Shown here: in pieces, positions 3,031 through 41,277 of the stretch | Layout of the letters: each line of letters begins with the position of its first letter | Position numbering within the stretch: the first letter of the stretch is position 1 | NCBI GenBank assembly: GCA_963804995.1 | Contig: CAWDSK010000003.1 | Span: forward strand, 544,001-608,000 | Origin: an uncultured Acidobacteriota bacterium | Lineage (GTDB): Bacteria > Acidobacteriota > Terriglobia > UBA7540 | Length of the DNA stretch: 64,000 nucleotides | Reading direction: 5' to 3' | Program-made: the position numbers and the translations under genes | The notes under the pieces: generated by a model | Seen by the model: the letters and a program-made list of their open reading frames with translations, nothing else | Told to the model about the DNA's origin: nothing | The model's database searches: none

Positions 3031-5008
3031 TTATCGGACTTGATTCCTTATCGCTCCGCTTGGGGCAACGCCAAGACGATTGCCTCTCGACAACCGCCCG
3101 GCCGTCGACAGATTCATGGGAGAAGCAATAGGGCTATAAGTGGCGGGGTTGTGGTCTTTGCCGTGGCAGGTGAGGTAGCAGGTGCCGCTGCGGGAGCCGA
3201 GGCGCTGATATTGCAGGATGCCGCCGCTGCTGGGCCCCACAATGGTGCGGTCAAAATCAATGAGCATGGGCCCCTGTGAGGCATGCGGAGCGTGGCAGGT
3301 GGAGCAGGCCGCATTTGCGCCACGGACGTGAATGGAATGGTAGGTGAAGCTCTGGTCCCGCAGGACGCTTCCCTCCACGTCATGACACTTGTCGCACAGA
3401 GCGTAATTGGTCACCGCGTAGGAGACGCCCGTCGACGAACCTCCGGGCGCCGCCGGCGGCGGTTCTAAGGAGCTTTCCCGTTCGAGCAGATGCGGCAGGT
3501 TCGAGCCGTGCGGTCCTGCAGGGCCGCTGGATGTTCCCAAGTTGCGCCCTGTGTCGTTGTTGTGGCAATCGCTACAGTAGATGTAAGTGACGGCCGAAAG
3601 TTGGCGGCTGGTCATGGTAGCTCCGCCCGGCGTGATGGGCTGCGGTCGCAGACTGGGGACGTCACCCCCCAACCCCGTGGCCAAATTCCGGGGGCGTGTC
3701 ACAGGATGAAAGGAGGGGCTGAACTGGAACTGCATGCGCGTGTTGAAGCGGTTGGGACTGCTCGCCTCGAACATGCGCTGGGGATTGCGCCCGTAACCCA
3801 CGCCCACCACACTGAAATCGGTGGATTGAGGCTTATTCCCGCTATCGGCATGACACTTAAAGCAGATCTCGTATTCGTTGTTGCTTTGGAGTATGTGTGC
3901 ATTGCCAGTGGATTGGCCTTTGACACCTAGCAACGACCCCTTCACCAGCGGCGGCTGCGCCGATACGCTGTTGGCGAAGTGGGGGTTATGGCAGTCGACG
4001 CACGCGGCGTGGCGGGGCGTGCCACTCCCCGTTTCGGGAAGCGGGTGCTGCGTGGAAGTCGGACTCTCCGCAGCATCGTGGACCGTGGGCGTGATTTGCA
4101 CCGGGTGCCGGTAAGTTTTGGCGGTGAATTCGCCTTCGACGTTCAGAGTGGTTACGCTCCCATTGTGGCACTGGTAGCACGTGGACGATTCCACAAACTT
4201 GACTAACCTCTGGGCGGTGGCGGGAGCGTGCGGCCGATGGCAGCTTTCGCAGCCATTCTTATTAACCCCGACGTACCCCGTGTGCGCGCCTTGCGCCGCG
4301 GTATATTTCACATCCTCGCGCGGGTCGGGCGGCATTCGGTGTACGGAGTCTTCCCAGCCCGCCTGGACGTGGCAGGTTAAGCAGAGCGCGGATTCGGAGT
4401 TCGGGGTCACAAGGAATTTCCAGAACCGTCGGATCCAGATTTTCCTGGTGAGGATCGTGGCAACTGGTGCACTGTACCTTTCCTGCGCCATCCAGGCGGA
4501 CCGGGCCGGTGGCGGTAAGGGGTTTGATCCCACTTGTGTGCGCAGGAGCAAAACCAAACGGATGGTCGTCTGTGAATCCCTTGTTCGCTGCCAGGTTGGA
4601 AGCAGAACTCGCCGGAAGGGCATACGCCGAGCCTTGTACAAATCGAAGCTGTCCATCATTGACGGTGTCGCCCAGGGCAATCGTCCCATCGTGGCAACTC
4701 AGGCACAGCTTGGAGACATCCTGCGGCTGAATAGGCGCGACGCTGGACGCTTGCGTCGTACTGGAGTAAGCCGGGAACTGCGCCGTTGACACTTTCTGGT
4801 TCCACAAATAGCTCCCGGGGTTCGAGTTGTGCGAGGTGTGACAAAAGGCGCAGGGGTCGCGGCCGGAAACCGAGCGTACGGTGGCTGGCGAAGAAGCCCG
4901 AAAATCGTGCTTGGAATTCAGCACAGCAGATATCTTATCGCCTCCCAACGCCGGCAGTACCATGGCCGCCCAGAGCGCCAGCAACGAGATGTAATTCACC
5001 CTACGCAA
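3031..5008 (-). CDS. Large multiheme c-type cytochrome (11 CXXCH + 1 CX3CH) with an OmcE-like N-terminal tetraheme module; split by a +1 frameshift near 4417-4426
   Basis: ORF 4262-5008 has a signal peptide, KHDF, CAFCH, LWN, CLSCHDG, DDHP and CTSCHDPH. It continues in ORF 3031-4689 from KFLVTPN with CLTCH, CESCH, CYQCH, CVDCH, CFKCH, CSDCH, CDKCH, CSTCH and CYLTCH. Removing one base gives about 658 aa. Confidence 0.88.
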
Positions 5009-6154
5009 CTACTGTCCTCCGCTGGGAGCTGTACCATCCGGCCGCAAACGAAACATCTGCACGCGGCGGTTGAACCCATCCGCCACGTAAATCCGGTTTT
5101 CGCTGTCCAAGGCGATGGCGGTGGGGAGGAAGAACTCTCCGGCCCCGGCTCCAGTTGAACCGAAGACAAATAATAAATGACCTTCCGCGTCGTAGACCTG
5201 CACGCGGTCGTTGCGGCCCTCAACTACGTAGACCCGTCCATGCTCGTCCACAGCGATACCCTTGGCCTTGTCGAAATCGCCCGGGCCGCTGCCCGCATTG
5301 CCAAATGCGGATAGAAACTTCCCCTCGGGGTCAAAGTGCTGGACACGGAAATTCAACGAATCGGTGACCCAGAGGGAGCCATCGGGGGCCACGGCGATGT
5401 AGGTCGGATAATTGAACTCGCCGGGTCCATCCCCACGTTCGCCAAAGCGGCCCACCACCTTGCCCTCGAGCGTCATCATCACCACTCGCATGGCAACGGT
5501 GTCCACGACGTAAAGGCGGTCGCGCTCGCTGTCGACGGCGATTCCCGTCGAGCGCTTGAAGATGCTCTCCTGGCGGTCCAACGCGCCCAGCGCCCGCAGG
5601 TACTTGCCTTGGGGATTAAAAAGGAAGATGCGCGCCCGCACGGCGTCGGAAACATAAATCCGCCCCTGCGCATCGCAGGCCACCGCTATGGGCGCGAGGA
5701 AAGGATCGGAATCGGGCGGGTGGAATTCTTGATACCGCCGGCGCGCCGGGTCAAATACGTGCAGGACTCGCTCCTTGGTATCGGCTACCAGAATCCTTCC
5801 TTGCGGGTCCACCGCGACGCCGTTGGGCGCCAGCATGGCTTTCTGCTGCTCCTCCAGCCCGATGATCGCCTTCAATACCCGCTTGCCCCAGGAGGGCTTG
5901 CCTTTAACATCGGCGGCGCTGCGCAGCTCGCCCACCCAGTCCACCGCGCCCAAGGCGATGGGATTGATGGGCGATTTCGGACTATCGGCGACCATCAGCC
6001 GCCCCAGCCCAACCGCCAGAAAGCAACAAACTGCCACCACTCGCGGGAGCTTATTGCTGTAACGGCGGTCTCTGACCGCCGCCTTTTGGTTCAACAGATT
6101 CCGGCGGTCAGAGACCGCCGCTACAGCAAGGCGAATTGGGTTAAGGCGCGACAA
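5009..6154 (-). CDS. Exported NHL-repeat six-bladed beta-propeller protein
   Basis: Repeated F-x-x-P-x-G-(I/V)-A-V-D...(I/V)YV-D...RVQ-F units; hydrophobic N-terminal segment. Confidence 0.92.
   Translation of the reverse strand: MSRLNPIRLAVAAVSDRRNLLNQKAAVRDRRYSNKLPRVVAVCCFLAVGLGRLMVADSPKSPINPIALGAVDWVGELRSAADVKGKPSWGKRVLKAIIGLEEQQKAMLAPNGVAVDPQGRILVADTKERVLHVFDPARRRYQEFHPPDSDPFLAPIAVACDAQGRIYVSDAVRARIFLFNPQGKYLRALGALDRQESIFKRSTGIAVDSERDRLYVVDTVAMRVVMMTLEGKVVGRFGERGDGPGEFNYPTYIAVAPDGSLWVTDSLNFRVQHFDPEGKFLSAFGNAGSGPGDFDKAKGIAVDEHGRVYVVEGRNDRVQVYDAEGHLLFVFGSTGAGAGEFFLPTAIALDSENRIYVADGFNRRVQMFRLRPDGTAPSGGQ
6057..6126. repeat. GTAG-type REP doublet inside the 5' end of the NHL ORF
   Basis: TGTAACGGCGGTCTCTGACCGCC ... 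GGCGGTCAGAGACCGCCGCTACA inverted pair. Confidence 0.8.
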
Positions 6155-6163
6155 CGTTGACCC

Positions 6164-8038
6164 TCACAATATCTTGAAGTCTCTCGTTATACGAAAGAAG
6201 TAGCGGTTCAGGAGGTTGCCTGTCTGGACGGGAACGGTTATGTTCTCGATCTCGTAGGATCCGAAGCCAACCTGTATTCTGATTTTGCCCACACGGTAGC
6301 GAGCGCTGATATCCGCTGTGCGGAATTTCGCTTGCGAGCTGCTGAGCAGGTCCCTTTCCGACATGTAATCGGCCGCCACATCCAATTGCGCACGCACCCG
6401 GAGCGCGGCCGTCGCCGTGTCGACGCGCGAGATCCGGTTGAGCAAGGGGGTGGCCACCAACTCGCTCAAGGGCAGCGGAACGCTCAGAAACTGCTCGGCG
6501 TTAATGATGGCGGGAAATAGCGCGCCCGCGCCCACTAAGTCCTGGTGACCCGCGCTCAGCGACAACCGTTGGTGCTGGACCTGCGCCGCATAGTTCGTCG
6601 TATCCGATTTGATGTCGCCGCTTACGCCCAGGTACTCCAAGCGAGCCCGTTCGGCGGTTCCCCGCACATACCAGCCAAAGAGGCGGGATGATTCCGCCTG
6701 CAGGCGCAGGCTGCGGGTGGAGGAAAATCCGCCGAGTTCATCGACGAGGTTGTACCTGGAATCCATCCCGGTAGCAAGCAGACGAAGGCGACCGGGGTCG
6801 CCCCAGCCAACTCTCCCCTGCAGGTCATTGGAGAACGTTGTCGGGTGGTGCCCCAGGGTCGTCCCCAGCAATTGGTAGTGGCCGGTGTATGTCCCCCCCA
6901 ATTCCAGCCCCCGCCAGGTTCTCCCAAAAGAGACGCCACTCAGAGAATCGAACTCGGAGGTCTCCGCCTCCGCCACCCCTTCGACCGCCGTTACACGATA
7001 TTCCTGAACTTGTTGAAACAGGTTCACGCTGGGGATGACCTGATAATTCACTCCCGCCCCAAGGCTATTCGAAGTGAACGCGGGAACCTGAATCAGGCTG
7101 AGGTTGCTGCCAGTGCCCTCTGTTCCGGTCAGGGAATTGGCACCACTCTGGGAGATGTTGGTGAAAGTGTAATAGTAGTTCGAGGAAAGTTTGGGCGTGT
7201 GCTTGATCTGGAGTTGGGAAGTGACATAAGCGTCCGTGAACTGCCCGGCGGGCTGGCCCAAAAAACTTTCCTGCTGCCATTCCAGGCGATCCGCAATGTT
7301 TAACCGGGCCTTGTCGTCCCAAAACTTGCGTGAAACAAAAAGGTCCTGCAATTTCAGATTTTCCCGGAACGGACTGGAAAGAGCGAAAGCCCCAACCGCG
7401 TTGGTCGTGGTGGAGAAGTCGTTGAAGCCGCCGTTCCATTTCCAACTCTTCCACTCGTCGGAAGCATCGATACTGAGCTCGTTCAGGCGGTAGCTCGAAT
7501 TGGTGAGCGAGGTGGGCAGTTGCACTTCGTTGGCTTGGTTAAGGTAGCGGACGGTCAGGTGAGGCAGGCGGCGGGTGCGAAGTTCCCACGTGAATCCGAA
7601 TGAGGAGGTGTCTGAATTCTCACCAAAACCCGTGCCATTGGCCCCGTACTCACTCTTCCGGTAGAAAATCTGGAGCGGAAACGAGCGTTCGGGCAGGAAA
7701 GATGCGCTGAAACCGACATCATAGACGTTGTCTCGAAACCCGCCCAGAGCTACCGCGTTTGAGGCGTGCTCGCCGCTGTAGTTAATGGTGAAGGGAATGA
7801 ATTTGGGATTCTTCAGGTACCCGCCCGCGAGAAGGTTCCAATCAAAGCCGGCGGTCGAATAATCGGAAGTATTGTTGGGACTGGAAGGCGTGAATAACGA
7901 CGTGTCGGTGGTTTTGCTGAGGTCGGCGCCCAGGGCGCCTTGCAATCGCCAATGTTCAGGGGTCGGGTCCTGTGCGAAACTCGGCAGCGCGGCCGCTAAG
8001 GCAATCGTCACGAGTTGAATTGCCAGTCTTGCTCTCAT
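6164..8038 (-). CDS. Putative outer-membrane beta-barrel (porin of a porin-cytochrome conduit)
   Basis: Cleavable signal peptide (…LPSFA/QD); 624 aa rich in S/T/N/G/Y/F with alternating amphipathic strands; C-terminal YFFRITRDF strand; no heme motifs; embedded among cytochrome genes. Confidence 0.78.
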   Translation of the reverse strand: MRARLAIQLVTIALAAALPSFAQDPTPEHWRLQGALGADLSKTTDTSLFTPSSPNNTSDYSTAGFDWNLLAGGYLKNPKFIPFTINYSGEHASNAVALGGFRDNVYDVGFSASFLPERSFPLQIFYRKSEYGANGTGFGENSDTSSFGFTWELRTRRLPHLTVRYLNQANEVQLPTSLTNSSYRLNELSIDASDEWKSWKWNGGFNDFSTTTNAVGAFALSSPFRENLKLQDLFVSRKFWDDKARLNIADRLEWQQESFLGQPAGQFTDAYVTSQLQIKHTPKLSSNYYYTFTNISQSGANSLTGTEGTGSNLSLIQVPAFTSNSLGAGVNYQVIPSVNLFQQVQEYRVTAVEGVAEAETSEFDSLSGVSFGRTWRGLELGGTYTGHYQLLGTTLGHHPTTFSNDLQGRVGWGDPGRLRLLATGMDSRYNLVDELGGFSSTRSLRLQAESSRLFGWYVRGTAERARLEYLGVSGDIKSDTTNYAAQVQHQRLSLSAGHQDLVGAGALFPAIINAEQFLSVPLPLSELVATPLLNRISRVDTATAALRVRAQLDVAADYMSERDLLSSSQAKFRTADISARYRVGKIRIQVGFGSYEIENITVPVQTGNLLNRYFFRITRDFKIL

Positions 8039-8155
8039 TGTCTCTCCGCTTGTTCACGGGCACGTTGCCTTCCAAAGATGCAGATGCAAACGAAACCAGA
8101 GTCCTGAGTTAGGAGTTCGCGATCAAAGTCGCCCTTTCAATTTATTCCAGGGCGA

Positions 8156-8402
8156 CCCCCTCACCCGACTGCGGGCCGAAGCTGAACTTGTTTACTGCTC
8201 CCAGGTACCCCTTCGGAGGGAGTAGGCCCGGCCCGCCCCGGCTGATGAAAACGCCGGTTGCGATCCACCCTCTCCCCCAAGGGGGCGAGGGCAAAGAAAA
8301 ATAAATCAACTCTCCCCTCGCCCCCCTTGGAGGAGAGGGCAAAAAAATCAAACCAACTCTCCCCTCGCCCCCTTGGGGGAGAGGGGCCGGGGGTGAGGGG
8401 GT
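8156..8402. repeat. Palindromic repeat family A (CCCCTCACCC...CCGGCTGATGAAAACGCCGG...CCACCCTCTCCCC-AAGGGGGCGAGGG)
   Basis: Related copies at about 46917-47070, 49398-49530, 49577-49683, 60491-60560 and 60858-60933. Confidence 0.85.
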
Positions 8403-8553
8403 TCGCGAACAATCAACAAACTTCTGACCCCGGACACCAGGGTGATGCGGACCAGCCGACAGCGGAGGCCGGAGGTAGGTTGCCCAGACCTCCACCGCCG
8501 GGAAAATAAGAATGAACTTCCGACTCAGGACACTACCGCCCCCTCGATGGGTA

Positions 8554-9327
8554 TTACTTGTGGCAGTAGGTGCACCAGTTGGTCGTCGCAACGAGCAAAG
8601 CTCGTCCGTAAGGGAAAGTAGTGCTCGCCCCTGCCGACGCCCCATTGTGAGGGTCATGGCAAGTCGCGCACTCCATCATGTAATTGTTGCCGTAAAGGGG
8701 TACATATCCGTTCGCGTCAACCCCATTAGCGCCGGCTGGAGCTGTCATCGAGGCTGCTGCCGCCAGGGCGGCGGTATATTGGAAGTGGACAGGGTGCGAC
8801 TTGGTCAGGTCCGAGATCGTCATGGTACTCGGCATGAAGGTTGCGCCGCTGACACCTAAACCAGTGCTCGTAAAAGTTGAGCCAGTGGCTGGAAGCCCCA
8901 ATGTCGACTCATAGAAGCTGGCAACCGCGACCGTACCATCGTGGCAGCTTAGACACAGGTTGCTGACCGTCAGCGTAGTAATGGTGTTGTCAGTCCCGAG
9001 CTCGGTGGGGCCGGCAGCCGCACCCAGGTGAGCGGTGAAGGTGTCGCTGCTGTAAACGCCGTAGGTCACTGAGGGGGAAGAAATAGTGTGGTTCCAGAGC
9101 AAATAACCCGGCGCCGAAGCAGAGTTATTTGCTGTTTTGTGCGTGATGTGGCAAAAGAAGCAAAGATTGGTTGAGGGAGCACTGGTTGCCGAGCCGAAGG
9201 TATAGCCGGACGTCAAATCGTGCGGTGTACCGACGATGCTTGCTTTGGTAGCCTGCTGGGCCGAGGCGGTTACGGTCAGAGCCGTCACCATCATCATCGC
9301 CAGTAGGAGTCTTTTTAGATTTGTCAT
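8554..9327 (-). CDS. OmcE-like tetraheme c-type cytochrome (copy 2), candidate nanowire subunit
   Basis: Sec signal; IVGTPHDL, CFFCHITH, LLWN, YSS, SNLCLSCHDG, DLTKSHPVHF, VPLY, ECATCHDPH and terminal CTYCHK. Motif order matches Geobacter OmcE as I recall it. Confidence 0.85.
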   Translation of the reverse strand: MTNLKRLLLAMMMVTALTVTASAQQATKASIVGTPHDLTSGYTFGSATSAPSTNLCFFCHITHKTANNSASAPGYLLWNHTISSPSVTYGVYSSDTFTAHLGAAAGPTELGTDNTITTLTVSNLCLSCHDGTVAVASFYESTLGLPATGSTFTSTGLGVSGATFMPSTMTISDLTKSHPVHFQYTAALAAAASMTAPAGANGVDANGYVPLYGNNYMMECATCHDPHNGASAGASTTFPYGRALLVATTNWCTYCHK

Positions 9328-9459
9328 AATGACCTCTCGATAGAATTTTATTACTGAGGCCGCAGAATGTTTCTCCGCGGTTGAGAAAAAACTTGCTTAC
9401 CACCTGCCTTCAAAAATCATGAGGACGCGCCAAATACCCTGGCGCCCCCTCGCTGGGGA

Positions 9460-10248
9460 TTAAGTGTGGCAGTAAGTGCACATACCGCCGCTAGCCGCAT
9501 AAGTGAAAAAGAACTGCCGGGCAAAGGGCATAGTACTGCCGTTCCCTACTGACGCCCCATTGTGCGGGTCATGGCAAGTCGTGCATTCCAACATGTAATT
9601 GCCGCCGTAAAGGGGTACTGCTCCGGCCCCGTCAACCGAATTAGCGTTGGCCGGAGTTTTCATCGCGGCCGCATTCGCCAGGTTAGTGGTATATTGGAAG
9701 TGGACAGGGTGCTGCTTGGTCAGGTCCTTAATCTCAAGTCCGTTATACGGAAACATCTTGGTGGTATAACCCAACGCCACCCCTGGAAGCCCGCCTACGT
9801 TCTCATAAAAGCTATTCATTGCGACCGTACCATCGTGGCAGCTCAGACACAGGTTGCTGGTCGTCGCCGAAGTGACGGAGTTGCTAGCCCCGAGGTCAGT
9901 GGGTGGGGCGGCGGTGGCCGCAGCCAGCACAGCGGTGAACGAGTCGCTGCTATAAACGCCGTAGGTTGGTGTGGAGGAGAGAGTTTTGTTCCAGAGTAAA
10001 TAACCCGGCGCCGAGGAAGCGACATCCGCGGTCTTGTGTGCGATGTGGCAAAAATAGCAAAGATTGGTCGTGACCGGCGCAGTTACACCGCCTTTGGTAT
10101 AGGTAGCTATAGTTCCAGTGTGTGCGGTCCAGGTCAAATCGTGCGCTGAATGGACGATGCCTGCTTTTGTAGCCTGCTGGGCCCAGGCCGTTGCGGTCAG
10201 AGCCCCCAGCACAAGCATCGCCAGGAGAAGTCTTTTAAGAATTACCAT
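9460..10248 (-). CDS. OmcE-like tetraheme c-type cytochrome (copy 1), candidate nanowire subunit
   Basis: Paralog of 8554-9327: IVHSAHDL, CYFCHIAH, LLWN, YSS, SNLCLSCHDG, DLTKQHPVHF, VPLY, ECTTCHDPH and CTYCHT; GAGAGG RBS before ATG 10248. Confidence 0.85.
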   Translation of the reverse strand: MVILKRLLLAMLVLGALTATAWAQQATKAGIVHSAHDLTWTAHTGTIATYTKGGVTAPVTTNLCYFCHIAHKTADVASSAPGYLLWNKTLSSTPTYGVYSSDSFTAVLAAATAAPPTDLGASNSVTSATTSNLCLSCHDGTVAMNSFYENVGGLPGVALGYTTKMFPYNGLEIKDLTKQHPVHFQYTTNLANAAAMKTPANANSVDGAGAVPLYGGNYMLECTTCHDPHNGASVGNGSTMPFARQFFFTYAASGGMCTYCHT

Positions 10249-10329
10249 AATCACCTCTCAACAAAATTTCCTTCGTGAAGCTGGTGAATGTTTCTCTGTA
10301 CTTGCGGAAAAGCTTTCTCACCTCCTTTC

Positions 10330-11436
10330 TCATGGCTTTCGCGGCGAGCCCGGATGGTCGCCGCCCAGGAACTGAAAAATTTGCACGCGGGAATTGAGCG
10401 CATCCGCGACGTAAACGCGGTCCTGCCTGTCAATGGAGATTCCCAGGGGCAGGTTAAAGCCACCCGGCGCCTTGCCGAAATTGCCCACGAACATCAGGAC
10501 CGTTCCTTTGGGATCGAAGATCTGGACGTTGTTGAAGGCGGCGTCCACCACCCAGATGTTGCCTTCACTGTCGAACGCCACGCCCTTGGGCCGCGTAAAG
10601 TAGCCAGGCCGATCGCCACGCCCGCCAAAGCGCCGCACAAATTTGAAGTCGGGGGAGAAAATCTGGACGGAGCAGCTTCCCGTATCGGTCACCGCAATGT
10701 AGCCGTCCCGGTTCACCCCCACTCCGATCGGATAGTTGAATTCCCCGTTTTTAGTGCCCCGCTTACCTACCGTGGCGATGTTTTGCAGCGTTTCCATGTT
10801 GTAGACCAGGACCTGATGGAGGTGGCTATCCACCACAAAAAGCCTGCGCCGGTTTTCATCCAGCGCCAGCAGCGCAGGGTTCTGGAGCGCCGGGGTCTGC
10901 CCGATCATGGCTTGCAAGTGGCCATCGCGGTCGAACTTCAGGACGCTGTGCAGCGACGGGTCGGAAACGTAGATATTGTCGTGGCTGTCCACGGCCAGGC
11001 CGAGGGGCATCTTGAGCACAATTCCCCGGTCACCTTTGATTCGGATGACTTGGTGATGATCCTTGTCCAGCACATAAAGTGTGGCGCTCTGGGCCGAGGT
11101 GAGCAAAATTCGTCCCTTGGAATCACTGGCCACGTCGGAGGCCCGCTTGAAGAACTCGACTCTGTTGGGGTCGGGATTGCCCACCATGCGATCCACCATA
11201 CTGAGCTTCTTGCGCGGCTCGATGTCGAAGTTGTTGGAAAACATCTCGAGGAACCGGACGCGCGGCTTGTCGGGAGACAGAGGCCAAACCATGGTGGGCT
11301 GGTCAGACGCGGAATAGCCAGGCGGCGCCTTTTCTTTGCCTCCCCCTCCCGCCACCCCCGGCGCGCCCCAAAGCATTACCAGGACGGCGGCCAAAACTAG
11401 GCCGGTTCCATTTAACTTCGGCAGGCTGACTCTCAT
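10330..11436 (-). CDS. Exported NHL-repeat beta-propeller protein
   Basis: Signal peptide, VWPLSPDKPRVRF N-terminal motif and NHL repeats (FNYPIGVGV, FTRPKGVAFD, FNLPLGISID); overlaps the stop of the upstream cytochrome (ATGA). Confidence 0.92.
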   Translation of the reverse strand: MRVSLPKLNGTGLVLAAVLVMLWGAPGVAGGGGKEKAPPGYSASDQPTMVWPLSPDKPRVRFLEMFSNNFDIEPRKKLSMVDRMVGNPDPNRVEFFKRASDVASDSKGRILLTSAQSATLYVLDKDHHQVIRIKGDRGIVLKMPLGLAVDSHDNIYVSDPSLHSVLKFDRDGHLQAMIGQTPALQNPALLALDENRRRLFVVDSHLHQVLVYNMETLQNIATVGKRGTKNGEFNYPIGVGVNRDGYIAVTDTGSCSVQIFSPDFKFVRRFGGRGDRPGYFTRPKGVAFDSEGNIWVVDAAFNNVQIFDPKGTVLMFVGNFGKAPGGFNLPLGISIDRQDRVYVADALNSRVQIFQFLGGDHPGSPRKP

Positions 11437-12347
11437 GGGTTCACCTTCTCTCCAGGCTTCGCCGGGGTATCCGGCATCTTCTTGGTTTGCTGCCCCGTTG
11501 GCGGCGCTTGGCTCTTGTTTTTGGCTGCCTTTTGCTCATCGATTATTTGGTGGCAGGTGGTGCAAACGTCCCGACCGCCCTTCACCGAAACAATGAGGTT
11601 TTCGTCCCCCGAGGCATGATGAGCATGGCAACTCAGGCACGACATTTTTTCTCCCGCGCGCAACAGGTCCGGTACCACGGCAACCGGATGGGTCACCCAG
11701 GGATGTCCGAAGCGCTGCGTGGGGTCAAGATCGATTTTCGGAATGGCGTCAAAATCGGCCTTCGAGATTTTCTGTGAGCCGAAAAGGGTTACCGTCTCGG
11801 CCGGGGCTTGGACATCGGCGTGGCAGGCGAGGCAGAGTGCATTTCCCGCCGCCCGTGTCTGTGCCTTGAATTCCGAGGAATGTGGATCGTGGCAAGTCAG
11901 GCACTGGCCACTCTTAAAGGGGCCGTGCAGCACAGGGTCCTTGGGGGCCTCATGGCACATCACGCAAAGATCGCCCCCGGTGGCGACCAAAGTGATGGTT
12001 GTCTTGTTTTTTTCTGACGTGGTTTGGTGGCAGTTCTCACACCCCATCCCCACTGCCGTGTGTACGAATTTCCCCTGGTTTTTGTCGGGATGGCACTGGA
12101 GGCAGGTCTCGCTTTTCAGGCCCTTGGTTTCAACAAAGGGATGCTCCGTGGAGTCGGCAGCAGAAAGTTTGCTAATCCTCAAAACCAAAACTGCCGATAT
12201 AACGAGAAGGAGTAAAAGTCCGCGTAGGGGCCCAACCGCTAACCGAATTCTAATAGAATTACCCGCTTGTCCCATTGTCCCAAGACCTGCTGTGCGTGGC
12301 ATAGAGAGCAAGGGATTCGCCAAAGGCGTGAATATTTTGTCTGCCAA
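11433..12347 (-). CDS. Heptaheme c-type cytochrome (cytochrome c3-like, doubled CXXCH), membrane-anchored or periplasmic; start uncertain
   Basis: CLQCH, CENCH, CVMCH, CLTCHDPH, CLACH, CLSCH and CTTCH; N-terminal hydrophobic helix. Confidence 0.9.
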   Translation of the reverse strand: MADKIFTPLANPLLSMPRTAGLGTMGQAGNSIRIRLAVGPLRGLLLLLVISAVLVLRISKLSAADSTEHPFVETKGLKSETCLQCHPDKNQGKFVHTAVGMGCENCHQTTSEKNKTTITLVATGGDLCVMCHEAPKDPVLHGPFKSGQCLTCHDPHSSEFKAQTRAAGNALCLACHADVQAPAETVTLFGSQKISKADFDAIPKIDLDPTQRFGHPWVTHPVAVVPDLLRAGEKMSCLSCHAHHASGDENLIVSVKGGRDVCTTCHQIIDEQKAAKNKSQAPPTGQQTKKMPDTPAKPGEKVNP

Positions 12348-16475: not shown

Positions 16476-16979
16476 ATGACCTACCACCGATTTGAGGACC
16501 TTCCTGTCTGGCAAGCGGGCTTGGAACTGGCCCGGCGAGTGTATCAGCTTACCGCTGGCCCGCCCTTCCGCCGGAATCGCAGCCTGCGCGACCAAATCGA
16601 GCGGGCGGCCGTCTCCGTCTCGAATAATATCGCCGAGGGTTTCGAGCGGGGTACGACGCAGGAGTTGCTGACCTTTCTCTACATTGCCCGCGGCTCGGGA
16701 GGAGAAATCCGCTCCATGCTCTGTCTGCTGGCCACGCTCGAGGATTTCGCCCATCTCAAATCTGAAATTTCAAATTTGAAATCCATGGCCGAAGGCGTTT
16801 CCCGCCAGTTGCGTGCCTGGGCCGATTCCTTGCAGAATTCCCCTATCACCGGTCAGCGGTATCTCACCGAAAAGTCCCGGCGCGCCAGCAAGGCCCGCAC
16901 TGAGCGTGATGAATTCCTAAGGAGCCTTCAAGATATTCGAGAGGGAAAAACGCCAGGTAGGAATTTACCTAACACGTAA
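16476..16979 (+). CDS. Four-helix-bundle protein (23S rRNA IVS protein / Avd-like family), copy 1
   Basis: RFEDLPVWQ, LRDQIERAAVSVSNNIAEGFER and FLYIARGSGGE. Confidence 0.92.
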   Translation: MTYHRFEDLPVWQAGLELARRVYQLTAGPPFRRNRSLRDQIERAAVSVSNNIAEGFERGTTQELLTFLYIARGSGGEIRSMLCLLATLEDFAHLKSEISNLKSMAEGVSRQLRAWADSLQNSPITGQRYLTEKSRRASKARTERDEFLRSLQDIREGKTPGRNLPNT

Positions 16980-39365: not shown

Positions 39366-41277
39366 TTACTTGCGGATAATCTTGGGAAAGTTCCTGGGAA
39401 CAATTCCGACGCCTTCCTTTACAGTGATGATGCGATCGATGGGCAGGTTGGCAAGTTTGTCCACGGCGCCACTGGGCCAGACAATTTCGAGTGCATCGAC
39501 ATTCTTTCTTTGCCCCAGCCCGAAGTGAAGGCGCGGGTCCTGGGCGGACATATAACCCATCCCCCCCTGCGCCTGCCGGTACTCGATGAAAGTGCCGGAG
39601 GTAAGCTTCAGCGCCGCGCCCCGGCCGTCCCGATTGGATTTTGTCCCCACCAGCATTACTTCCAGCCAGTGGTTCGAATTTTCGCCTTCGTTGCGCAAGA
39701 GCTGCGGGTAGGAATTGCTGTTCGAGATGGCGATACCCAGGCGCCCGTCGTTATCAAAATCCGCTACGGCCGACCCGCGCCCCACGGTGGGTTTCATGAA
39801 GTCCGGCCCCATCTGCTCAGACACTTTTTCGAATTTACCTCCGCCCAGGTTGCGGAACATCAACTTGGGCTCCGCCCAAGTCTCCTCCGAGTGGTACAAG
39901 CGGATATTGTCCAGCATGCTCCCATTCACCTGGAAGATGTCCACCCAACCGTCGTTATCGTAATCGAACATCCGGGCGCTTACGCCGCTCAGAAGAATGG
40001 CTTTGTTGCCGAGGCCAGAGGTAAAGGTGACGTCATCGAAGGTCTCGTCGTGGTTGTTGCGATAAAGCCGGTTCAGCTCAAAGTCCAGGTGCGTGACGTA
40101 CACGTCCAGCCAGCCGTCGCCATCGACGTCCGCCGCGTCCACACCCATGCCGGCCTCGTATTTCCCGTCGTCACTGGCCGCCACGCCTGAGGTGAACGAA
40201 ACATCGCGAAACGTCCCGTCATGATTGTTGATGAAAAGGAAATTCGGCCAGGTATCATTGGCCACAAAGATGTCAGGCCAGCCGTCGTTATTAAAGTCCG
40301 CCAGCACCACACCCATGCCCTTCGCTTTCGGGCTTCCCCACCCCGGAGGCGTCGCTAACGTCTGTGAAGGTGCCGTCGTGGTTGTTGTGATAAAGCTTCA
40401 AGCGTTGGCCCCGGTAATTGTCCGGATGGCAATAAGCACGGTAGCCGGGCTTGTGGTCGCCACACCAAAGATTATTTTGGGGCGACCATTGGATGTAGTT
40501 GCAAATCAGCAGATCCAGATAGCCGTCCCGGTCGTAATCAAACCACCCCGCGCTGGTTGACCACCCGCCCTCATCGGCGACGCCTGCCTGGGCGGTCACA
40601 TCGGTGAAGGTCCCGTTGCCGTTATTGTGGTAGAGGATGGTGTGGCCGTAGCCGGTCACCAGCATGTCCGGATAACCGTCGTTGTCAAAATCGCCTACGG
40701 CCACGCCTTGTCCGTAGAACCCTGCGGCGCCGACCCCGGCCTTTTCCGTGACATCGGTGAACGTTCCATCGCCATTATTGTGATAAAGCGCCGAGCGCAG
40801 AGGGCGCGAGGGCTTGTACCATTCCGTCGCCGCGGTTTGGACCAGGTAGAGATCCATCAGCCCGTCCTGGTCGTAATCGATCCAGCCCAATCCGTTGCCC
40901 ATGGTCTCGAGGTAATTCTTTTCTTCCGTCATCGTGGCGTCGTGCTGAAAGGTGATTCCGGCGGCCTGCCGTACGTCCGTGAAGTGAATTGGGATGCCGG
41001 CCGAATGCGGCCCGGCGTGCTGGACCTCGTGATGGGCGACTTGACTTCTGTTGACCGCGCCGGCCTGAGGGGGAGCGCCAGAAGTCATGGGCCACAGAGC
41101 AGCAAGGGGCTGCGCACGTAATAGACTCCACAAGGCCGAGTTCGCGAAAAGTAGGGCGGCGGTCAGAAGGGCCACAGCCGCCAATCGGTGCGACTTGGGA
41201 GTCGTATTTGGATTTTGTTTTTTCAACTGGGTTTCTCGTCCCGCCCAACTATAGCGCAACCCGTCCTCCGACCTCAA
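39366..41277 (-). CDS. CRTAC1/ASPIC-UnbV family FG-GAP repeat protein, split by a +1 frameshift near 40327
   Basis: DYDQDGLMDL, DFDNDGYPD and DYDRDGYLD repeats; GKPE(A)KG joins MGVVLADFNNDG; C-terminal LHFGLG...IVWPSG UnbV domain. Confidence 0.9.

Follow-up and report, generated by a model that had tools for sequence, protein, structure and literature searches.

The locus described here occupies positions 3031–12347 on the minus strand of a 64,000-nt stretch of DNA from an uncultured Acidobacteriota bacterium (Terriglobia, UBA7540), referred to below as the window, within which all coordinates are given. It consists of seven genes in the same orientation, named g1 to g7 from the upstream end. 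The first, g1 (11433–12347), is an open reading frame (ORF) of 304 amino acids with seven heme sites, counted here and throughout as CxxCH motifs in the translations, and its protein on record is 280 amino acids long (P0338). It is followed by g2 (10330–11436), encoding a 368-residue NHL-repeat beta-propeller that we call type a, and by two genes for tetraheme cytochromes, g3 (9460–10254; 264 amino acids) and g4 (8554–9327; 257 amino acids). Beyond a spacer of 515 nt lie g5 (6164–8038), encoding a 624-residue protein discussed below, g6 (5009–6154), encoding a 381-residue NHL-repeat propeller of type b, and g7 (3031–5008), a large cytochrome gene whose start abuts the stop of g6. Canonical CxxCH motifs over the seven genes amount to 26, or 27 if a CX3CH motif at the end of g7 is counted. 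A first-pass annotation of the sequence had described just such a row of co-oriented genes, with a 7-heme cytochrome, two NHL propellers, two tetrahemes, a 624-residue protein and about 27 heme sites, and motif counts together with Pfam NHL matches bear this description out. It had also assigned export signals to all seven products; inspection of the translations by eye agrees to the extent that every N-terminus carries positive charge followed by a hydrophobic stretch.

We consider that these genes probably form an omcE-type cytochrome-nanowire and extracellular electron transfer (EET) cluster, homologous, part for part, to the minimal omcE cluster known from Desulfuromonadia, in a Terriglobia chromosome. 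The minimal cluster, as published in a paper of which excerpts were available (PMC13712944, mBio 2026), comprises an OmcE subunit, a large barrel, two beta-propellers and two multiheme cytochromes, and the same part list appears in the window as g3 and g4, g5, g2 and g6, and g1 and g7, respectively. It is the host that is new, the machine being of a kind already known. A reading of the products as periplasmic enzymes was also considered and was rejected, none of the seven showing a match to a catalytic family in Pfam or NCBIfam.

Tetraheme cytochromes, barrel and propellers

The relationship of the two tetrahemes to OmcE is apparent from direct sequence comparison. In phmmer searches g4 matched chain 7tfs_A with an E-value of 1.6e-9 (residues 13–256 of g4 on 10–230), with the four CxxCH motifs and four further histidines aligned, and g3 matched the same chain at 2.4e-6 (18–245 on 10–216). 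We take 7tfs, a 232-residue chain that the PDB table names only 'Cytochrome c', to be the G. sulfurreducens OmcE filament; PDB 9YUQ is the OmcE bundle of Desulfuromonas soudanensis. A profile built from 35 OmcE-family members (A2) reached E-values of 6.7e-22 to 7tfs and 3e-18 to 9yuq, and across its 35 sequences H36, H63, H178 and H227 are invariant, as are all four CxxCH motifs, a conservation that PMC13712944 also points out. The two paralogues share 62% identity and are mutual nearest neighbours in a tree of OmcE modules. Judged by full-length sequence homology to both solved OmcE filaments, g3 and g4 are members of the OmcE family, as the first-pass annotation had supposed. The MtrC/OmcA surface decaheme family (PF22113) scored 18–25 bits on g3, g4 and the N-terminal piece of g7, below its cut-off of 30. 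Furthermore, the presence nearby of genes for a large outer-membrane barrel and a beta-propeller, which serves as a filter for the OmcE family in the available part of PMC13712944, is found here in g5, g2 and g6 of the same co-oriented block. In OmcE filaments, according to the excerpts of PMC9473688, a heme is ligated by a histidine of the neighbouring subunit. By homology, g3 would be a candidate filament subunit and g4 the candidate major one; their polymerisation and extracellular location, which the first-pass annotation had put too firmly, are suggested by this same homology.

Homologues elsewhere were surveyed in one genome per species (GTDB set), scanned with an OmcE-family alignment, and the best 80 of 382 confirmed matches corresponded to 77 loci, which were read as six-frame ORF maps and many of which are cut by contig ends. 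Tandem or multiple OmcE-like genes with four or five hemes, comparable to the g3 and g4 pair, were also seen in loci L017, L018, L039, L069 and L075, and 5-heme OmcE variants are noted in the excerpts of PMC13712944.

No Pfam or NCBIfam family matched the product of g5, for which a profile search through the whole library of 1.84 billion proteins returned 136 representatives at E<=1e-3. An AF2 model computed from a 59-sequence alignment (pLDDT 87.7, pTM 0.71) shows a signal helix and 28 beta-strands; an earlier model, from an alignment of 21 close homologues (A1), had a pLDDT of 41.9 and was discarded. The top PDB match of the retained model was MtrB (6r2q_B), both by Foldseek (E 2.9e-10, TMq 0.50) and, independently, by VIA-align (Z 17.0, 471 residues aligned, root-mean-square deviation 6.5), at a sequence identity of about 8%. 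Since generic porins, TonB receptors and LptD come next behind MtrB at Z 13–16 by VIA-align, the match has to be read as one to a very large plug-less barrel, common descent not being proven, and the modelled likeness to MtrB may reflect size and lack of a plug only. That g5 encodes a transmembrane barrel, which the first-pass annotation had set beforehand as a test of its own reading, is nevertheless predicted confidently by the model.

Evidence that this barrel belongs to a wider family came from the survey. The close-family profile A1 alone found matches in 2 of the 77 loci. When the g5 profile A3 was compared by hhalign with 33 heme-free ORFs of other phyla chosen by their position, the two closest loci being omitted, the match had a probability of 99.6% and an E-value of 6.7e-25, and hmmsearch with A3 directly matched 9 of the 33 at E<1e-3, including an ORF of Geobacter sp. 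at 1.7e-4. A broad barrel profile was built partly from these 33 ORFs, so its hits on them are circular, and the independent link is that provided by the hhalign and hmmsearch comparisons with A3.

The cytochrome at the head of the block, g1, matches Paired_CXXCH_1 (E 2.4e-29) and has an N-terminal hydrophobic segment. Its score against the DmsE/MtrA-type decaheme model TIGR03508 was 59.2 bits for a cut-off of 192.2, and because of this score and of its seven hemes we do not regard it as a member of that family. Homologues at E<=1e-5 number 256, and a phmmer search with g1 matched 28 of the 32 multiheme ORFs located directly upstream of barrels in other loci. As for the propellers, Pfam NHL is matched by g2 at E 9.9e-31 and by g6 at E 6.1e-31. 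NHL genes of this kind form two distinct orthologous groups, type a accompanying the subunit gene and type b the large cytochrome: in other loci, 33 of 52 NHL ORFs adjoining tetraheme OmcE genes had g2 rather than g6 as their better match, and for those directly upstream of a large OmcE-module cytochrome the better match was g6 in 45 of 48. There is no cysteine in the signal-like N-terminus of g2, and hence no lipobox was seen there by eye, while that of g6 contains 'VAVCC', likewise judged by eye not to be a standard lipobox.

The large cytochrome

In the window g7 is read as two overlapping ORFs, one at 4262–5008 with a signal-like N-terminus and three CxxCH motifs and the other at 3031–4689 with eight CxxCH motifs and the CX3CH. 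Eight intact homologues follow the first frame as far as about 4427 and the second from 4419 onward, and since they run across both otherwise open frames we place a single frameshift at 4427–4419. Identities of the two pieces are 57% and 64% to the homologue in locus L007, and 48% and 54% to that in L009. A query for public sequencing runs containing 3031–5008 listed none. The cytochrome of about 12 hemes announced by the first-pass annotation is thus present in its eleven CxxCH motifs and one CX3CH, not as a single open frame. Elsewhere in the window, at 39366–41277 on the minus strand, two overlapping ORFs with FG-GAP repeats, the second also with UnbV_ASPIC, look like one frame-split gene of the ASPIC/UnbV type.

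If the frameshift were real, it would remove a conserved large cytochrome and leave a remnant, and the locus might be decaying or inactive. The frame change within g7 is compatible with this, and so is the sporadic occurrence of the cluster in relatives, a single-protein search with g5 having given 2 weak matches in 40 related genomes and the barrel profile matching 28 of 401 genomes of the phylum (about 7%; 25 of 228 genera, at E<=1e-5, own genome included). We nonetheless hold decay to be improbable. Both halves of g7 are otherwise open, are 48–64% identical to intact homologues and keep every heme motif, so any break must be very recent; the other six genes are intact, and the second probable split gene at 39366–41277 hints at indel errors in the assembly.

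The first part of g7 is itself OmcE-like. Its N-terminal piece matched 7tfs at E 2.7e-13 and 9yuq at 1.7e-12, and a profile of 30 full-length homologues of the g7 family (A4) covered the whole OmcE chain at 1.5e-48 (7tfs) and 9.1e-40 (9yuq). Ten of the eleven CxxCH motifs are fully invariant in the A4 alignment, the eleventh having one cysteine nearly invariant, and the OmcE module retains the eight OmcE histidines plus a nearly invariant ninth, 10 residues past heme motif 4, which is also present by eye in g7. The C-terminal part of A4 matched surface or periplasmic multihemes, namely 6qvm (4.1e-10), 6r2q_A (4.8e-8), which is presumably MtrA, and NrfB (5.3e-5), as well as the surface cytochrome 6i5b. 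It ends in a C-x3-CH motif (CxLxCHG; A4 columns C638–H643, corresponding to the end of g7 within 3031–3200) that is invariant in the 30 aligned sequences and kept, on visual inspection, in almost every one of 55 family members, and that may constitute a twelfth, non-canonical heme site. Such a sequence points to an OmcE module fused to a 7-heme MtrA/NrfB-like wire that terminates in the invariant CX3CH. In the OmcE-module tree one split holds 61 of 61 large-cytochrome modules together with only 3 of 66 tetrahemes, at a weak support of 0.40, which suggests that the large cytochromes derive from one old fusion.

OmcE ends after heme motif 4, where the chain of g7 runs on, and the module would therefore offer one free filament-type interface only; with a single such interface, g7 must be terminal if it joins any filament. 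We put forward, tentatively and with rather less than even confidence, that the g7-type large cytochrome is the missing terminal subunit of OmcE nanowires, docking one filament end only and, with its dedicated NHL protein, wiring the filament through or onto the 28-strand barrel, in a cluster made up of three mobile gene pairs that is found in genomes labelled as at least 12 phyla, Acidobacteriota included. The suggestion of a base or tip cytochrome made in the first-pass annotation gains strength here, as a complete OmcE module makes up the N-terminal part of the large cytochrome. The excerpts of PMC13712944 specify a filament anchor as having 'nine histidines and four hemes', describe OmcE operons as containing no tip candidate and place their own anchor candidate outside the cluster. 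An 'OmcE/OmcP' homology group is recognised in the literature, and a search of the literature on the Geobacter neighbour genes GSU0615-0622 and OmcP found no description of an OmcE module in the large cytochrome, although further papers may hold one.

The matches of the C-terminal part invite comparison with Shewanella MtrCAB (PDB 6R2Q), which has in common with the locus a large plug-less outer-membrane barrel beside multiheme cytochrome genes, MtrB being the best structural match of g5, and presumably also a role in carrying electrons across the outer membrane. It differs from the locus in that g5 has 28 predicted strands and so little identity to MtrB, that MtrA- and MtrC-family models stay below their cut-offs in the window, and that the NHL propellers and OmcE subunits are without an Mtr counterpart. 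These likenesses nourish a different explanation, a porin-cytochrome conduit without a filament, in which the barrel sheathes a multiheme cytochrome as MtrB does MtrA and the tetrahemes and the large cytochrome are surface or periplasmic monomers feeding humics or minerals. Both the barrel match and the resemblance of the C-terminal part of g7 to MtrA and to the surface cytochromes 6qvm and 6i5b agree with it, as does a preprint of May 2026 on peat Acidobacteriota (bioRxiv 10.64898/2026.05.27.727921), available in part, which describes an 'EET1' porin-scaffold-cytochrome cluster with OmcE-like models, transcribed in situ. 'EET1' shares with our locus the phylum (Terriglobales, UBA7540) and a make-up of porin, scaffold and multiheme cytochromes, OmcE-like models included; the two are likely of one cluster type. 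The preprint differs from us in its interpretation, its available text reading the clusters as Mtr-like conduits rather than filaments, with 0 occurrences of the word 'nanowire'. We nevertheless regard a filament-free conduit as unlikely, given that the subunits are homologous over their full length to two proteins whose solved structures are all filaments, that the whole cluster is of the type tied to OmcE filaments in Desulfuromonadia in the excerpts of PMC13712944, and that all MtrA and MtrC family models fall under their cut-offs.

Recurrence and genomic setting

The synteny check proposed by the first-pass annotation showed that the gene set recurs. It includes an OmcE tetraheme, an NHL protein, a multiheme cytochrome, a heme-free ORF of about 570–970 amino acids, a second NHL protein and a large cytochrome of about 560–700 amino acids with 11 CxxCH motifs and an N-terminal OmcE module. 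Among the 77 loci the tetraheme was found in 58, the large OmcE-module cytochrome in 61, at least one NHL gene in 68 and at least two in 39, and the barrel in 52 by the broad, partly circular profile. All five part types are present in 32 of the 77; of the 29 loci that span 18 kb or more, 20 have the full set. Because the same gene types recur around OmcE homologues elsewhere, the arrangement in the window is not due to chance. The genes move as three pairs, the subunit with NHL type a, the cytochrome with the barrel and NHL type b with the large cytochrome. In the Geobacter sp. locus (L083) the order is OmcE subunit, NHL, 5-heme cytochrome, barrel, NHL and 11-heme cytochrome. Loci L009 (labelled Acidobacteria) and L007 (labelled Chlamydiota) have the same order as the window, with cytochrome, NHL, two OmcE subunits, barrel, NHL and large cytochrome.

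Complete loci came from genomes labelled Geobacter, Desulfobulbaceae, Desulforhopalus, Myxococcota, Gammaproteobacteria, Betaproteobacteria, Verrucomicrobiota, Phycisphaerae, Planctomycetota, Ignavibacteria (Ignavibacterium album, L030), Bacteroidota, Calditrichota, Binatia, Thermoanaerobaculia, Poribacteria and Acidobacteria, and OmcE-family matches were also obtained under the names Acidobacteriales, Terriglobales, Ca. Angelobacter and Ca. Acidoferrales. Complete clusters with a barrel were seen, too, on contigs labelled Thermoplasmata archaeon (L061) and Chlamydiota (L007), the latter being the closest relative of the genes in the window; both labels may result from mis-binning. The homologue phyla listed in the excerpts of PMC13712944 are Thermodesulfobacteriota, Pseudomonadota, Aquificota, Campylobacterota and Nitrospirota, and Acidobacteriota is not among them. 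Full-text literature on OmcE together with Acidobacteria or Acidobacteriota yielded, by title or abstract, no characterised cytochrome filament in the phylum, and further papers may hold one. The first-pass annotation had overstated the novelty of the locus, as far as the accessible parts of the two sources tell, the cluster type being published (PMC13712944) and OmcE-like EET clusters of Acidobacteriota being described in the 2026 preprint (10.64898/2026.05.27.727921).

The cluster is flanked by pgk, an IS200-like transposase gene, tpiA and secG on one side and by a DUF6782 metallopeptidase-like gene on the other, and its GC content is about the same as that of the surrounding DNA. The transposase, of the IS200-like Y1 type (PF01797, E 6.5e-21), lies at 1027–1476 on the plus strand, between pgk and tpiA and just outside the cluster. 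The triosephosphate isomerase of the window falls into a 90%-identity cluster in which the members with names are 'Terriglobia bacterium', Terriglobia being a class of Acidobacteriota. A solitary gene of the 23S rRNA intervening-sequence protein family (PF05635, E 2.7e-25), at 16476–16979 on the plus strand, is surrounded by genes of sugar metabolism. A scan for sigma-70 promoters gave 1 site against 3.6 expected. The source genome, 7.55 Mb in 9 contigs and 92% complete, contains 4 Cytochrom_C_asm matches, indicative of cytochrome c maturation, and a search in it for OmcE homologues found none besides g3, g4 and g7. It has 23 ORFs with at least three CxxCH motifs; other large multiheme ORFs are located at C2:14210-17266 (19 CxxCH), C1:679765-680808 (10) and C3:534598-535893 (7), and given these the genome may harbour other electron-transfer systems.

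The setting bears on the direction of electron flow. The same hardware could run inward, to take up electrons supplied by Fe(II), by a partner cell or by reduced humics, or could mainly serve biofilm cohesion; direction is not readable from sequence, and cell-to-cell transfer and biofilm roles are proposed for OmcE bundles in the available text of PMC13712944. Against this, the window shows no sign of an oxidative pathway, the flanking genes being housekeeping or carbohydrate-related, and we deem such a use very unlikely.

The spacer between g4 and g5 carries, at 8250–8410 on the minus strand, three copies of a GC-rich palindrome that would form very stable hairpins with U-rich tails. Its predicted RNA fold has an energy of −97.9 kcal/mol (z −5.75), equalled in 0 of 200 shuffles, and one terminator-like site was located at 8347–8313. 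A possible function is that of a transcription attenuator or messenger RNA stabiliser setting an excess of the subunits; the hairpins could equally be read as a repetitive extragenic palindromic (REP)-like element instead of a regulatory attenuator.

Proposed working and significance

Compared with the omcE cluster of Desulfuromonadia, the locus agrees in its part list and its subunits share with OmcE the four CxxCH motifs and the four further histidines. It differs in the tandem duplication of the subunit, in its permuted order, in a first cytochrome with seven instead of five hemes, in the absence of a glycosylation gene block after the cluster and of a visible lipobox on g2, in subunits that are 25–40 residues longer, and in a host phylum outside the five listed in the excerpts of PMC13712944. 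The second point of comparison is the OmcS nanowire, for which Shen et al. in 2025 reportedly described an osc companion cluster of channel-like and beta-propeller-like assembly genes. With it our locus would have in common a polymerising type of cytochrome with histidine ligation between subunits, a property of OmcS that homology suggests here too, as well as channel-like and propeller-like neighbours. On the other hand, OmcS is a hexaheme without detectable sequence similarity to the tetrahemes of the window, 6ef8 (OmcS) appearing only at E 0.0052 for the N-terminal piece of g7 and at 0.038 for A4. A porin-type mounting is proposed for OmcS in the available part of PMC13712944.

In addition to the ambiguity of the barrel match, several observations weigh against the assignment of the locus to the omcE type. 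The identity of g3 and g4 to solved OmcE is low, and OmcE-like tetrahemes are widespread, so that context is required before calling a nanowire, according to the authors of PMC13712944 in the excerpts available. The commonest heme count of the cytochrome upstream of the barrel is five (20 of 32), not the seven of g1; published propellers are called lipoproteins, though g2 appears to lack a lipobox; and the gene order departs from the common one of OmcE subunit, NHL, multiheme cytochrome, barrel, NHL and large cytochrome. Within the phylum the barrel has a scattered distribution, and a genuine break in g7 might leave the system impaired.

Assuming an omcE-type cluster, a working scheme can be proposed. 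All products would be exported by Sec and the cytochromes loaded with heme in the periplasm, for which maturation genes are present in the genome. The g3 and g4 products would be the polymerising subunits, a histidine of one ligating a heme of the next to give a continuous stacked heme chain, in keeping with the conserved ligand set and by analogy with solved OmcE. The g5 barrel, in its modelled fold, would act as outer-membrane passage or anchor, whether as secretion pore or as conduit sheath. The g2 and g6 propellers, whose partner genes are those of the subunit and the large cytochrome respectively, would serve as scaffolds or chaperones. As a periplasmic or barrel-associated relay, g1 might receive electrons from donors in the inner membrane or periplasm and hand them on to the base at the barrel. 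The OmcE module of g7, continuing past heme 4 into 7–8 more hemes, would dock one end of the polar filament, and g7 would either cap the filament or join it to the barrel and the periplasmic relay. An excess of subunit transcripts might be maintained by the stable hairpins downstream of g4.

The host phylum is absent from the list in the available text of the cluster-defining paper (PMC13712944), and the novelty on this count is modest, the cluster itself being partly anticipated by the preprint (10.64898/2026.05.27.727921), as far as its accessible part goes. Of greatest interest are the anchor or cap candidate and the architecture of three modular pairs across many phyla; going by genome labels, the cluster extends well beyond the five phyla in print (PMC13712944, from the same excerpts). 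The large OmcE-module cytochrome offers a concrete candidate for filament anchoring or termination, a question that the field lists as unsettled. Acidobacteriota dominate many soils and peats, where humic and iron-mineral respiration controls carbon loss and methane. A member of the Terriglobia with a complete OmcE-type cluster suggests that long-range wiring, as in Geobacter, may extend to these bacteria.

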